Assembly: GCA_963657885.1 (NCBI GenBank)
Contig: CAVKNZ010000005.1
Location: 1 to 56,385, forward strand
Length of the DNA stretch: 56,385 bases
Reading direction: 5' to 3'
From: Bacteroidaceae bacterium
GTDB taxonomy: Bacteria; Bacillota_I; Bacilli_A; RFN20; CAG-826
How positions within the stretch are numbered: position 1 is the first letter of the stretch; each line of letters starts with the position of its first letter. The notes beneath the pieces were generated by a model. It searched no databases, was not told the origin of the DNA, and saw only the letters and a program-made list of their open reading frames with translations. Shown in pieces: positions 39,807-45,894 of the stretch. A program made the position numbers and the translations under genes.

Positions 39807-40265
39807 TTAATGTAAGTTAAGGTTATCTATTAAACCTATCTTTCTTAAAGACGAACTAATATCATTGGAGCAAATTAAATCAGTAACAAACTCATCGTAG
39901 GCAATAATTTCAGCTTCAGGAGTCTTTTCAATTAAGGTTTCGTAATCGCTTCCCACGGTGAAAAACCAATCGATCAATTCAACTGTTAAAAGCTTTCTGT
40001 TTTTTTCTTCAAGAACAATGTCTTTAACTTCTTTAAAATAAGAGGACATTTCCTCAATCAATTGTTTATTATTTTCGCTGCCTTTATGCGTATAAATATT
40101 ATGAAAGCAAAGAACAAATTTATTGCCCAAAGTAATACATCTAGTAATCGCATCAGCTTTATTTAACATACATTCCATATTCATTTTATTAATTATAGGG
40201 AGTATATAGTCCTTGACATCTAACGATTTTTCCATCGTGAAGTAATATTGAATCGCCACGACCAT
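39807..40265 (-). CDS. Hypothetical protein; true start probably the Met at 40184 (no overlap with the upstream gene)
   Basis: The ORF-track start overlaps the FtsK-like gene by 77 nt. An internal ATG lies just after that gene's stop. Confidence 0.5.
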   Translation of the reverse strand: MVVAIQYYFTMEKSLDVKDYILPIINKMNMECMLNKADAITRCITLGNKFVLCFHNIYTHKGSENNKQLIEEMSSYFKEVKDIVLEEKNRKLLTVELIDWFFTVGSDYETLIEKTPEAEIIAYDEFVTDLICSNDISSSLRKIGLIDNLNLH

Positions 40266-40926
40266 TTAGTTCAATGTATTCGCCAATCAACTTACGAGTC
40301 AATTTATCATCAAAGTTAGTTAATGCAACAATAGTCTTAAAATCATTTGTTAAATTTATTTTAGATATTAGATTAATCGCTCTCTGGCTTGCCAGGACGA
40401 CATGGATGCCAAACTTATAACCGACATTTAAAAGTTTAGATAAAGCTACATCTATTATCTCATTTTGAATATCTGCATATTCATCTATTACCATGATAAT
40501 TCGTGGCAAATCATGGCTAATAGTAAAATCGTTGCCTTTTAGAAGCGATTCTCTTTTATGGCATTCGACTAAAAGATTATTTATCACCTTAAGGAGGTCT
40601 TCTTCTTTTTCAATTGGCGGCCAATAAAGATATTCGCTATTTTTATAGCAACAGAATTCAACGCGTTTTGAATCGACTAGCACTAAACGCATATCATTAG
40701 GCGATGCGGTCAGCATATTACTTTTGATGAATGTGTGCAAAAAGACAGATTTACCGCTTCCAGTCGTGCCATAAACTAAAACATTTTCTGCTTGTGAAAT
40801 GCTTTCCATTAAAAGTGAAGATTCACCAGATGGAACTCCGTATATAACATTCACTAAAGATTTATCTTTAATGACACTTTCCTTTAAAAATGGTTCCCAA
40901 TATTTCAATGTAAAAATTTCTTTCAT
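40189..40926 (-). CDS. Stand-alone FtsK/SpoIIIE(HerA)-like P-loop ATPase domain (245 aa)
   Basis: Walker A VYGTTGSGKSVFL, LVLVDSKRVEF, Walker B IIMVIDEYADI and ASQRA (compare FtsK ATQRP). Confidence 0.65.
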   Translation of the reverse strand: MKEIFTLKYWEPFLKESVIKDKSLVNVIYGVPSGESSLLMESISQAENVLVYGTTGSGKSVFLHTFIKSNMLTASPNDMRLVLVDSKRVEFCCYKNSEYLYWPPIEKEEDLLKVINNLLVECHKRESLLKGNDFTISHDLPRIIMVIDEYADIQNEIIDVALSKLLNVGYKFGIHVVLASQRAINLISKINLTNDFKTIVALTNFDDKLTRKLIGEYIELNGRGDSILLHDGKIVRCQGLYTPYN

Positions 40927-41022
40927 ATTGCCCTTCTTGATTTTCTTTAAGTATTATAGCTTTTAGTTAGTATAGATATTATATTCAAAATAGAAATGTA
41001 CTGCTATAGACTTCAAGGTAAA

Positions 41023-43522: not shown

Positions 43523-43965
43523 GAGTTAACCTCCTCTTTTGGAAATAAAAGAACTTTATTGAATTTGCTTTTTTCAAAACTAAGTGTTCTATTAGGAATA
43601 TATAAGTCGCCGACAGTGGAACAAAACACAGCAATGAGAAGCTCTAAATTATCACATTCAATATAACTATAATGACGGAGCCTATCACTTACTTTTACTG
43701 GGTCGTCATCTTCAATAGTCTCAGCAATCATATATCCAGTTGGCCTTTCAATAATCGAGGCTACTTGAGGATGAGTGTCGACATATTTTTTAACATTAAC
43801 GCTTATCTCTTCGTCTTTTAGTCCATATGCCGAAAGTAGGAGTGCTAATTTATATGGTGTAAAAGCGATATATTCTTTGAGTTGGACTTTTTCAAACTTT
43901 ACCTGACTAGTAGGAGGGGCAGACATGTTATGTAGTAGTTCGCTCATAAATTCAGTTCCTTCCAT
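43519..43965 (-). CDS. Hypothetical protein between MoxR and VWA genes
   Basis: 148-aa ORF. The alternative start at 43947 forms an ATGA overlap with the MoxR stop. Its own stop overlaps the next start by 4 nt. Confidence 0.55.
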   Translation of the reverse strand: MEGTEFMSELLHNMSAPPTSQVKFEKVQLKEYIAFTPYKLALLLSAYGLKDEEISVNVKKYVDTHPQVASIIERPTGYMIAETIEDDDPVKVSDRLRHYSYIECDNLELLIAVFCSTVGDLYIPNRTLSFEKSKFNKVLLFPKEEVNS

Positions 43966-45392
43966 GTATTTATAAAGAACGTAAACAATGATTTGGGTTC
44001 ATCTTCGTTTAGATATTTATTGGGCAAATAGGAACACAAGTAGTTGTTTAAGTATTTCCTGTATTTCTTGTGGTATGGAACTCTATGCATTAAGGAAACG
44101 ACAGCGTCCGCACATTTCTTGCTTTTTAAATGCTCCATTGAAGTATGTTCTTTTGTTTCTAAAACCGGCCTAATCTCGTTAGCCAAGGTTTCGATAACAG
44201 TGGCGTGGATGTTTCTATTAGTCCTAAAAGAAAGATAAACAAATAACGCCATCGCGCGCCTTATTTTACTATCATCGATCTCACTTAAGGATGAAGTGAT
44301 TGTATCGTTAACAATATCAATGCTTACTGTTTTTTTGCTTTTAATTAAGACTTTAAGTCTTTCAATTGGGTCTGAGATTAGTAAGATATCTTTTTCAATC
44401 GTATCATCTAATTCAGTAAGCTTTAATGCTTGTTGACAAATGCTCATTAAAAGAGTTTTATCTACCACTTGGTTAACAGTATTTGGTAACGTATTTTGAA
44501 TATGAAGATAGGCAACATTATGAAACTTTGTGCCTAAATTAAAATAACTATTCAACACTTTAGAGGCTGCTAGAAGATAGAGCAGTGAATCTTCTAACAT
44601 AGTTGCTCTTCTCGCGGAAATATAGCCAAAGGAATTTTTGAGCAATCCCATTAAAGTAATGATGTATTTAGATACTGATTCAGTGCTGGTGTCTAATAAA
44701 CTTTTATAGCAATCTTTGGTTTTATTAATCAATTCATTTATATCAGTCGGAAACTCGTGTCTTCCTAAATGATTGTCTTTTAAAATACTCTTTTTATCTC
44801 GATCATTTAGCTCATCCCAAGTAGGCACTTCAACAATGAAAGGGAATCTATCAGCAAGAGCGGGATCTAATTTCGACGTCCCAATATAAGCAAATTCATC
44901 CTCATCATCGTCATCCTTACACGGCGGGTTCATCGCCGCCCAACGATATTTAAGCTTATCTAAATTTATTCCTTGTACTCTTTTATCATAGATAATTGGA
45001 AATAATTTATTTTGTAATTCCGGTTTAGTTCGATTGATTTCATCAATGAAAACAACTTCCGCATCCCAAATTGAACTTGGATTAGAAATATAGCTTAATG
45101 AAGTATTGTTATTGACCGGGACAGGAATGCCCACTAAATCATCATAATTTATTAGTGATGCATTATAGCATCTAAACTCTAATCCTAGAGATTCAGCAAG
45201 TCTTTCAAGGATAAATGATTTCGCGCTCCCGTGTTTTCCAATTAATAGCATCGGCATTTCACTAGCTAGAGCCGCTAATATAATCGGCTCTAAAGTAGAC
45301 CAGCCAAATAGTCCTAATGGTTCGCTTATCAACGAGTAATTTGTATTGCTGTTTTGAATGTTATTCATAAAGAGAAACCTCGTTTCTTTCAA
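43944..45392 (-). CDS. MoxR-like AAA+ ATPase
   Basis: Walker A LLIGKHGSAKS, Walker B VVFIDEINR and sensor AAMNP. Paired with a VWA protein, as is typical for MoxR. Confidence 0.75.
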   Translation of the reverse strand: MKETRFLFMNNIQNSNTNYSLISEPLGLFGWSTLEPIILAALASEMPMLLIGKHGSAKSFILERLAESLGLEFRCYNASLINYDDLVGIPVPVNNNTSLSYISNPSSIWDAEVVFIDEINRTKPELQNKLFPIIYDKRVQGINLDKLKYRWAAMNPPCKDDDDEDEFAYIGTSKLDPALADRFPFIVEVPTWDELNDRDKKSILKDNHLGRHEFPTDINELINKTKDCYKSLLDTSTESVSKYIITLMGLLKNSFGYISARRATMLEDSLLYLLAASKVLNSYFNLGTKFHNVAYLHIQNTLPNTVNQVVDKTLLMSICQQALKLTELDDTIEKDILLISDPIERLKVLIKSKKTVSIDIVNDTITSSLSEIDDSKIRRAMALFVYLSFRTNRNIHATVIETLANEIRPVLETKEHTSMEHLKSKKCADAVVSLMHRVPYHKKYRKYLNNYLCSYLPNKYLNEDEPKSLFTFFINTWKELNL

Positions 45393-45894
45393 GTAGAGGA
45401 ATGAAAGTGAATGTATCGTAGCCTTTTAAATAGGCGTTAATTTCGTCTAAAAAGACATTGTCTAAAAAGGTATAGCCTCCTTCTAAATAGCTAATTAATT
45501 GAAGACCAACTTCAAAAGACTTAAGCAATTGACCATTATGTAAACAAAAATAAGAGGCATCATCAAAATATAAAGGATCTTTAACAACAGTAAAGCCAAG
45601 CAATGATAATGTGTCGCATATTTGTAGATATGTTGCAGAGCTATTTATGTTAATAATTATTTTGTTATTAACTAATGCATCTTCAAATAAATATGAACGA
45701 AAACTACTAGCTGAATTAAATAGGTTTTTTATTTTACCTATATTTAGATTTTGCTTTACCGGCGTGGCTATTTTATATTTAACCCGCCAGAAAGGGGCGT
45801 CACCATCCTCAATTGTTATTCCATATCGTTCACATAGAGGAGCTAGTTCATCTTTATTAGCCTTCACATAACAAACATCTTCATAAAAATCCAT
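45361..45894 (-). CDS. Hypothetical protein, first gene behind the S-box leader
   Basis: 177-aa ORF with a strong SD AAGGAGGA 7 nt upstream of the ATG at 45894. Confidence 0.6.
   Translation of the reverse strand: MDFYEDVCYVKANKDELAPLCERYGITIEDGDAPFWRVKYKIATPVKQNLNIGKIKNLFNSASSFRSYLFEDALVNNKIIININSSATYLQICDTLSLLGFTVVKDPLYFDDASYFCLHNGQLLKSFEVGLQLISYLEGGYTFLDNVFLDEINAYLKGYDTFTFIPLLERNEVSLYE

Follow-up and report, generated by a model that had tools for sequence, protein, structure and literature searches.

A divergent MetK-family gene travels with a MoxR ATPase, a small protein and a zincin-VWA protein behind a SAM riboswitch

What joins a MoxR-class ATPase, a putative metallopeptidase and a relative of S-adenosylmethionine (SAM) synthetase in one operon behind an RNA element of the SAM-sensing kind? 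The question is raised by a stretch of 56,385 nucleotides (nt) from a Bacteroidaceae bacterium (GenBank assembly GCA_963657885.1, contig CAVKNZ010000005.1, positions 1 to 56,385), hereafter the window. A preliminary description had read seven open reading frames (ORFs) between positions 39807 and 45894 of its minus strand as one undescribed cassette under the control of an S-box (SAM-I) riboswitch. All seven ORFs are present at those positions and on that strand. The conserved unit is a SAM riboswitch followed by four genes, which encode a MoxR AAA+ ATPase, a protein of about 145 amino acids (aa), an HExxH zincin fused to a VWA domain with a metal ion-dependent adhesion site (MIDAS), and a MetK-like protein. 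The system has four core genes, or five in the sublineage of the window, and not seven, because the first ORF of the operon (orf177) occurs only in the closest relatives, the FtsK-like gene occurs in three loci and the last ORF (orf152) is found in the window alone. The domain calls made earlier for the MoxR, zincin-VWA, MetK and FtsK-like products are supported by Pfam matches and motifs.

The MetK-like protein has many homologs at 50-79% identity. A species-level scan (one genome per species) returned 298 stretches with MetK-like relatives, from which 80 loci were kept; all of the related loci scanned come from metagenome-assembled genomes. When the window proteins were compared by phmmer with the six-frame ORFs of all loci, the order MoxR-VWA-MetK-like was found in 65 of the 66 non-redundant loci with enough upstream DNA. 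The VWA gene stands one gene downstream of MoxR in 65 loci, and the small protein lies between the two in related loci. The sole exception (L045) is without MoxR; another 16 loci are truncated where their contig ends. The same order of MoxR (about 466 aa), a small ORF (114-148 aa), VWA (about 440 aa) and MetK-like is kept in four contigs whose flanks are unrelated, and two distant VWA homologs (37-38% identity) used as queries recovered the same four-gene block. The loci span Bacilli, Clostridia, Erysipelotrichaceae, Lentisphaeria, Kiritimatiellia and many Verrucomicrobia, as well as Proteobacteria, Planctomycetota, Polyangia, Rokubacteria and Actinomycetes. When 2,144 flanking ORFs were clustered all against all, no universal neighbor emerged; the only recurrent finds were an ORF of about 70 aa resembling DUF6538, in loci of the Planctomycetes-Verrucomicrobia-Chlamydiae group, and an ADP-ribosylglycohydrolase, and 139 flanking ORFs matched 137 different Pfam families. 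The four-gene core and the SAM riboswitch travel jointly as a self-contained module in at least eight phyla. The preliminary description had stated that a gene set never conserved as a block elsewhere would speak against it; the neighborhood is conserved. In two loci the block is interrupted: an IS110-family transposase gene on the opposite strand (L004 8561-9745, and also L005) splits the VWA gene from the MetK-like gene.

The riboswitch is nearly as constant as the genes. An element of the SAM clan (SAM-I, P4-less SAM-I or SAM-I/IV) lies upstream on the same strand in 53 of the 56 assessable loci, that is, loci with at least 150 nt upstream of MoxR. Rfam matches at or above the gathering threshold stand directly upstream of MoxR in 15 loci, as SAM-I in L006, L008, L076 and L081 and as SAM-I/IV in L023, L024, L028, L029, L030, L031, L032, L036, L039, L040 and L043. 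A covariance model made from the threshold-passing leaders, rebuilt from its own matches and run over 1.14 Mb, identified 42 same-strand upstream sites, in which 90% of cells were paired, compared with 36-46% when the partners were slid. These sites held 138 double-change cells against 42 expected, and none of 500 shuffles reached the observed values. Aptamers of three different architectures stand in front of this one operon, which argues that the sensing of SAM is an intrinsic part of its function. Riboswitch matches obtained with regular expressions inside the ORF of about 70 aa (L049, L051, L055) were rejected as false positives, and covariance models were used instead. This ORF lies between riboswitch and MoxR in Verrucomicrobia and Planctomycetota (L049, L051-L055, L057-L060, L063, L064, L072, L074, L075, L077 and L084; for example L049 3069-3302) and carries the motif NPxHHLWNNNGTWWxHYT...RRxRxSL. 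It has a weak match to DUF6538, which we take to be an integrase N-terminal-like domain, and looks like a lineage-specific fifth gene in a position analogous to that of orf177.

The preliminary description had also allowed that the MetK-like gene might turn out to be the only metK of its organism. In two Opitutae loci (L052 and L057), the riboswitch-led operon consists of the DUF6538-like small ORF, a canonical metK, MoxR, VWA and MetK-like. The canonical gene (5472-6605 in L052, 5474-6574 in L057) lies between the small ORF and MoxR, and where junctions could be read directly, from the small ORF to metK and from metK to MoxR, the genes are 3-7 nt apart. MetK-like is therefore not simply the sole metK, and the cassette is tied to SAM synthesis. 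A third genome, L076, likewise carries a canonical metK besides MetK-like, so that the sole-metK possibility fails in at least these three genomes. Two further riboswitch arrangements stand apart from this pattern. In L033 (2823-6588) a SAM-I/IV riboswitch lies 3.6 kb upstream of MoxR, and the interval holds four co-directional ORFs for a DnaJ-like protein, a HIRAN protein, a 258-aa protein with no assignment and a Sel1-repeat protein; Sel1/TPR proteins also adjoin the cassette in L004 and L009. Second SAM-I/IV riboswitches are found 1.4-2.4 kb past the cassette in L040 (12532-12637, plus strand) and L048 (13468-13583, minus strand), where they control other genes.

In the window, the leader and all genes of the operon are on the minus strand. 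A putative sigma-70-like promoter (TTGAAA-17 nt-TATAAT, 46068-46096), identified by consensus match only, lies just upstream of the aptamer; it is the best site in the consensus scan (11/12), and the nearest relative, L092, shares the motif. The SAM-I aptamer (45976-46062) matched RF00162 at 37.2 bits (E 2.3e-6) in a permissive search, below the gathering threshold of 44.4, and Rfam at gathering thresholds gave no riboswitch match in the window. The low score reflects the absence of helix P4, which neither the window nor any close Firmicute relative has, so that 87-89 nt align to a 108-nt model; the leaders of L076 and L081 do have it. Orthologous or near-identical leaders exceed the RF00162 threshold, with 46.9 bits in L006, 55.1 in L008, 66.5 in L076 and 71.4 in L081. 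Among nine aligned Firmicute leaders, P2, P3 and the terminator show compensatory changes (10 of 29 pairs compensated), and no variation is seen in the junction sequences AGAG, GGGAC..GCCC, CAACC and GGUGC.AA. Because the orthologous leaders pass the threshold and P2, P3 and the terminator covary, the window element is, by comparative sequence criteria, a genuine S-box leader of a P4-less variety. The S-box assignment made earlier is thus upheld through the orthologs, with the window's own match remaining below the Rfam cut-off.

How this leader would act can be read from its alternative pairings. An intrinsic terminator with a 10-bp stem and a U-run (45929-45957, stem 45957-45935) lies downstream of the aptamer, and its stem shows compensatory changes in orthologs. 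The sequence ACGATGGGA is common to the P1 3' strand and the terminator 3' arm, and the terminator 5' arm is able to pair alternatively with the P1 3' strand to form an antiterminator; the shared sequence gives the leader the classical logic of mutually exclusive terminator and antiterminator. Downstream of the terminator, the minimum-free-energy fold contains a hairpin (45899-45928) in which UUCCUCUU pairs with the Shine-Dalgarno (SD) sequence AAGGAGGA. Overlapping this hairpin, CCUCUUUAUGG is the reverse complement of CCAUAAAGAGG in the aptamer 5' strand (46050-46060), and the arrangement of the SD hairpin is kept in L004, L006, L008 and L092. These features suggest a second, translational layer of SAM control through the SD-sequestering helix. 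From the leader as a whole, we infer that the operon would be transcribed only at low SAM.

The order in the window is promoter, SAM-I OFF riboswitch with terminator and SD-sequestering helix, orf177 (45361-45894), MoxR (43944-45368), the small, fast-evolving core protein (43519-43947), the zincin-VWA gene (42122-43522, an ORF of 466 aa) and the MetK-like gene (41023-42117). Probable true starts were set from the N-termini of orthologs and from the gene caller's 364-aa MetK-like product. They lie downstream of the starts of the longest ORFs: MoxR begins at an ATG and has 474 aa (482 aa in the longest ORF, from a TTG at 45392), the small protein has 142 aa (148) and MetK-like has 364 aa (370). 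With these starts, the orf177 stop overlaps the MoxR ATG in ATGAATAA, the MoxR stop and the small-protein ATG overlap in an ATGA, and the small-protein stop and the VWA ATG overlap in another ATGA (43519-43522), while a gap of 4 nt separates the VWA stop from the MetK-like ATG at 42117. Such tight junctions make translational coupling of the first five genes plausible. The overlap chain that had been proposed for these genes is exact at the ATGA of 43519-43522; at its last junction it gives way to the 4-nt gap, as there is no overlap with a TTG at 42135. Behind MetK-like, the spacer to the FtsK-like gene is 96 nt long and AT-rich.

The MetK-like protein is a divergent member of the MetK family. 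Its three Pfam domains score above gathering thresholds (PF00438 57.6, PF02772 32.4 and PF02773 62.8 bits), and its family profile matched only bona fide structures of MetK and methionine adenosyltransferase (MAT) in the PDB (E 1e-45). Against the NCBIfam metK equivalog TIGR01034 it scored 138.3 bits, short of the cut-off of 309.4. We aligned residues of 26 family members with three canonical metK products (L052, L057, L076), two phage MetKs and E. coli MetK, whose columns agree with those of the canonical metKs and with the PDB alignment. The ATP, triphosphate and metal residues are kept (H14, D16, E42, D118, K165, F230, D238, K245, K265, K269 and D271, in E. coli numbering), and these eleven catalytic residues are present in 26 of 26 members, except that H14 is Gln in one (P0038). 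At the methionine site, Glu55 is replaced by Arg in 25 of 26 and Gln98 by Glu or Asp in 25 of 26 (Gly in one), and Ser99 is variable. The gating loop QSPDIxQGV is replaced by ExLSDDER, and further substitutions are K17→R, R229→D (in most members), R244→K and I302→P. In human MAT2A, Glu70 and Gln113, the equivalents of Glu55 and Gln98, hold the amino and carboxyl groups of methionine, and Ser114 and Arg264 are needed for SAM formation (PMC6850014). As judged from these residues, MetK-like retains the ATP and triphosphate chemistry of SAM synthetases and has a rebuilt acceptor pocket, and its binding of ordinary L-methionine is doubtful.

These properties bear on two simple explanations of the locus. 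One is that MetK-like is an ordinary second SAM synthetase, a metK paralog that stands beside unrelated genes by chance. It has the MetK domains and catalytic residues and, like a true metK, belongs to the S-box regulon; yet linkage of the four genes holds in 65 of 66 loci, the protein reaches 138 bits against an equivalog cut-off of 309 bits, and the residues that bind methionine are replaced, whereas the two aligned phage MetKs keep them. We regard this explanation as highly improbable. To the other, that MetK-like is a decoy or guard, a catalytically irrelevant mimic that would sense phage proteins directed at MetK and trigger a MoxR/VWA-zincin effector, we assign a slighter probability still. 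The MetK fold is kept while the surface and loops are altered, as a decoy would require, and the SAM lyase of phage T3 has been reported to bind and inhibit MetK. Conservation of the eleven ATP and triphosphate residues across phyla argues instead for retained enzymatic activity.

The two phage MetKs in the alignment (Javan630 and an Anaerosphaera phage) keep the canonical Glu55, Gln98, Arg244 and Ile302. A phage origin of the cassette was considered and rejected: a megablast search with 14 kb against 50,697 phage records gave no match, and a scan of IMG/VR (2.9 million viral contigs) with the family alignment found no member. The absence of the subfamily from these 2.9 million viral contigs indicates a cellular module.

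Which activity might the other core proteins bring to this enzyme? MoxR matches AAA_5 at 46.8 bits (cut-off 22) and bpMoxR below threshold (20.4 against 27 bits), and its Walker A (GKHGSAKS) and Walker B (VFIDE) motifs are intact in 53 orthologs. The zincin-VWA protein has two weak Pfam matches, both below gathering thresholds, to VWA_CoxE and to DUF2201_N, a putative metallopeptidase. Its HExxHxxxGH motif (HELYHIILGH) and its MIDAS motif DxSGS..GGT..TDG (DVSGS) are conserved in 62 orthologs. Foldseek searches with its AlphaFold2 model (mean predicted local distance difference test score, pLDDT, 76) gave as top matches 9qhe_G and 9qh6_G, the NorD VWA domain in NorQ-NorD complexes, and the MIDAS domains of MDN1/Rea1 were also among the best; a PDB sequence search returned no match for this protein or for MoxR. 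The small protein folds confidently (AlphaFold2 pLDDT 76). For it, Foldseek found no PDB fold match below E = 4, a PDB sequence search gave only weak, non-significant matches (best E = 0.24), and no Met or Cys is conserved across phyla.

We propose that the cassette is a SAM-starvation module in which a MoxR/VWA(-zincin) remodeler gates a non-canonical adenosyltransferase, a reading to which we give an even chance. Low SAM would let the riboswitch permit transcription of the operon. A MoxR hexamer and its VWA adaptor would then act on MetK-like as a dedicated client, by analogy with CbbQ-CbbO on Rubisco and NorQ-NorD on nitric oxide (NO) reductase, with the MIDAS site perhaps binding an acidic loop, for which LSDDER and SDDQN, both specific to the family, are candidates. 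The remodeler would open or activate an enzyme that is predicted to have no normal self-closing gate, and the fused zincin could process the client or the small protein. The output, either SAM itself or an adenosyl compound from which the SAM pool is fed, would close a product-feedback loop through the riboswitch. We favor this proposal because the block is found in 65 of 66 loci and the SAM riboswitch in 53 of 56, with no other flanking gene conserved. It is favored further by the canonical metK within the operon of L052 and L057, by the intact catalytic, Walker, HExxH and MIDAS motifs, and by the resemblance of the VWA model to NorD and MDN1. Of the two readings offered in the preliminary description, the one that made MoxR/VWA an activase for a specialized adenosyltransferase fits best, given the NorD-like VWA match and the altered substrate pocket.

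Several points weigh against the proposal. We infer the client relationship between MoxR/VWA and MetK-like from adjacency and analogy only. The change of Glu55 to Arg and the loss of Gln98 and Ser99, which make binding of L-methionine doubtful, mean that the product may not be SAM. A second SAM synthetase looks redundant where a canonical metK shares the operon. To our knowledge, CbbO and NorD are without a protease domain, and the conserved zincin is not accounted for by the activase analogy. The proposal does not explain this zincin, the change of Glu55 to Arg or the recurrent ADP-ribosylglycohydrolase neighbor. The patchy distribution, the variable and sometimes defense-rich flanks, and the company of ADP-ribosylglycohydrolase, Macro and FtsH-like proteins suit a conflict module equally. 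An appreciable, clearly smaller probability goes to a variant in which MetK-like adenosylates an acceptor other than methionine, either a metabolite or a peptide or protein, to yield a new adenosyl-sulfonium or other adenosyl compound. SAM collapse would license its synthesis and the AAA+/VWA protease would gate it, and the compound would serve in a rescue or immune response when the SAM pool is attacked, as by phage SAM lyases.

A narrower form of this idea is that MetK-like adenosylates Met or Cys of a protein or peptide, possibly the small protein, with the zincin as processing peptidase and MoxR/VWA presenting the substrate. The abolished site for the alpha-amino group of methionine (Glu55→Arg) and the replaced gating loop are consistent with it, as is a small protein of no known fold, and the pairing of a zincin with a small fast-diverging protein recalls the peptide-processing additions of MoxR-vWA systems (PMC7159879). 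This form nevertheless leaves the tight SAM control without a reason, and the small protein is a folded one of about 145 aa in which no Met or Cys is conserved across phyla. We know of no precedent for a MetK-fold enzyme that acts on a protein. On balance we consider protein adenosylation improbable.

The remaining alternative, which was the other reading of the preliminary description, is anti-phage defense or rescue upon SAM depletion. Phage SAM lyases or MetK inhibitors would collapse SAM and the OFF riboswitch would derepress the operon, which would either restore SAM for restriction-modification, BREX or Dnd systems or make a toxic or signaling adenosyl compound. The OFF-switch logic fits this idea, the module is self-contained and stands in unrelated contexts across phyla, and its absence from viral contigs marks it as cellular. 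Conflict systems built around MoxR-vWA modules have been predicted (PMC7159879). Of the 139 flanking ORFs, a minority match BrxL, PglZ, DndB, restriction-modification or mad models; the neighbors include mad2/mad3, a restriction enzyme of type II and methyltransferases of type I, and also an SNF2 helicase with an Eco57I-like methyltransferase. In Firmicutes, ADP-ribosylglycohydrolase, Macro, FtsH-like, Fic and HAD_SAK_2 proteins co-travel with the cassette. Against this, most flanking ORFs are unrelated housekeeping or unassigned genes, and the module contains no nuclease, TIR domain, pore protein or other conserved effector. In PADLOC-DB 2.0 the four core proteins have no match below E = 0.008 and fit no model; the FtsK-like protein alone matches. 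A known defense system in the island of the window was sought with PADLOC and rejected, as the search gave only generic AAA similarity to IetA and a WYL domain. The canonical metK in the operon of two genomes and the SAM riboswitch nearly everywhere speak against a purely defensive role. The support for defense is circumstantial, consisting of variable context and a minority of neighbors from defense islands, and we think this reading unlikely.

The surroundings of the cassette in the window are AT-rich (GC content 0.28-0.36 throughout), and no compositional anomaly of the island was found within the window. Genes for GH43 enzymes and sugar ABC transport occupy 12-29 kb. From about 29 kb onward there are genes for WYL, SHOCT, two soluble FtsH-like, Fic and ADP-ribosylglycohydrolase proteins and for HAD_SAK_2 fused to FtsK-gamma. 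Co-travelers in Firmicutes lie on the same strand in variable order, namely ADP-ribosylglycohydrolase, FtsH-like, HAD_SAK_2, Fic, p157 and a family of 450-aa paralogs. Directly downstream of the cassette, two paralogous proteins of about 445 aa that match no family flank a small P-loop ORF (36426-37778, 37872-38309 and 38373-39701, minus strand), and a close homolog of the 450-aa protein is found upstream of the cassette in L006 and L016. The two soluble FtsH-like proteins (29922-31160 and 51267-52679, minus strand) combine AAA and Peptidase_M41 domains with no evident membrane part; homologs co-travel in L006, L008, L011 and L092, and they have weak similarity to the anti-phage ATPases IetA/IteA. 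The FtsK-gamma/HAD_SAK_2 fusion, a Fic/DOC protein and the ADP-ribosylglycohydrolase are encoded at 49410-50593 and 53823-54671 (minus strand). An ADP-ribosylglycohydrolase gene lies within about 6 kb of the cassette in the Firmicutes L004, L006, L008, L011, L080 and L092 and in the Kiritimatiellia L033 and L041. In L004 a Macro-domain gene directly follows MetK-like, and about 7 kb downstream of the cassette there is a ROOL RNA (RF03087, 211 bits; 17835-18366, minus strand), with HNH, PUA-like and DNA-methylase genes close by. In the window, two plus-strand ORFs of 219 and 466 aa with no family match (46323-48384) stand directly upstream of the riboswitch promoter and break the otherwise co-directional island.

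The three window genes outside the core are less widely shared. The orf177, 148-aa and 152-aa ORFs gave no match in Pfam, PHROGs, PADLOC or NCBIfam. Homologs of orf177, the sublineage-specific first gene of the operon, number only 5 among 1.84 billion representatives; a homolog occupies the same slot (riboswitch-orf177-MoxR, with the 8-nt overlap) in L091, L092 and L093, and phmmer against six-frame ORFs found none in all other related loci. The FtsK/SpoIIIE-type P-loop protein (40189-40926, minus strand, 245 aa) matches PF01580 at 65.6 bits, the PADLOC model mad8 at 3e-14 and also SspH. Its gene stands behind MetK-like in the window, L012 and L013 alone and is absent from the nearest relative, L092; it is an occasional accessory outside the core. 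The last gene, orf152 (39807-40265, minus strand), is co-directional with the others, has no family match and no homolog in 90 loci, and is not kept in related loci; its translation probably begins at the ATG at 40181, shortly past the FtsK-like stop.

The regulons of SAM riboswitches are considered well charted, and MetK is seen as one enzyme of high conservation. The loci described here add a second class of MetK-fold protein, with a rebuilt substrate pocket, tied to MoxR and a VWA-zincin and nearly always found behind a SAM riboswitch. Bacteria of gut, rumen and freshwater carry it, in up to about 300 genomes counted at species level. If our proposal of a SAM-starvation module is right, the cassette would extend the MoxR/VWA activase paradigm to a new client, open a new branch of adenosyltransferase chemistry and add an unrecognized arm to the response to SAM starvation. 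If defense or backup is its role, no earlier immune-type module would have been linked directly to a metabolite riboswitch, here one that responds to the loss of a cofactor known to be attacked by phages. The riboswitch also offers an experimental handle, as limitation of methionine or SAM is expected to induce the operon.

How does the cassette compare with known systems? CbbQ-CbbO is a Rubisco activase and NorQ-NorD serves the maturation of NO reductase; in both, a MoxR AAA+ protein and a VWA adaptor are encoded beside the gene of their client. The cassette resembles them in pairing a MoxR-class AAA_5 ATPase with a MIDAS-VWA partner next to one enzyme gene, and in a VWA model that best matches NorD VWA domains. 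It differs in that its putative client is a MetK-fold adenosyltransferase, a conserved HExxH zincin forms the N-terminal part of its VWA protein, a further small protein is encoded between MoxR and VWA, its MoxR has a C-terminal extension of about 270 aa, and the whole unit is led by a SAM riboswitch. With canonical MetK and the Firmicute S-box regulon it shares the three-domain MetK fold, the ATP and triphosphate residues and a SAM-I riboswitch with terminator. Unlike canonical MetK, the cassette protein fails the equivalog cut-off, is changed at Glu55, Gln98, R244, I302 and the gating loop, and is tied to MoxR, the small protein and VWA, here behind an aptamer without P4. Prophage MetKs (PHROG 1569; Javan630 and 'metK2' of S. 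pyogenes prophages) are distant homologs on mobile DNA (28-31% identity). In three phage loci the metK neighbor is a DNA methyltransferase (Javan630, a Mycoplasmopsis phage) or a ParB-like nuclease (the Anaerosphaera phage), with no annotated MoxR/VWA neighbor, unlike in the cassette; their canonical residues, where aligned, and their different neighbors place them in a different class from MetK-like.

Two further comparisons concern the MoxR and VWA proteins. In the 'ternary' conflict systems predicted by Kaur, Burroughs, Iyer and Aravind (2020, PMC7159879), MoxR and vWA form the core, some members add zincin peptidases or small peptides, and the distribution is patchy and mobile, all of which the cassette recalls. 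Unlike those systems, the cassette is without VMAP, beta-propeller or effector-associated domains, and that study makes no mention of MetK, SAM synthetase or a riboswitch. The uncharacterized DUF2201_N/DUF2201 family (PF13203/PF09967) likewise has an HExxH motif followed by a VWA-like domain beside an AAA_5 ATPase, and the zincin-VWA protein matches PHROGs 1297 and 1314 (1.6e-19 and 1.6e-15); by contrast, its Pfam scores against this family are below threshold, and the tie to MetK-like is found in the cassette subfamily only. No NCBIfam or PADLOC model covers the core proteins, and the literature searched gave no description of a MoxR/VWA/MetK-like system and no paper joining a SAM riboswitch with MoxR, in keeping with the novelty claimed for the locus at the outset. 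Set beside these relatives, the system appears to be an undescribed MoxR/VWA client module, distinguished by a new client, a fused protease and riboswitch control.

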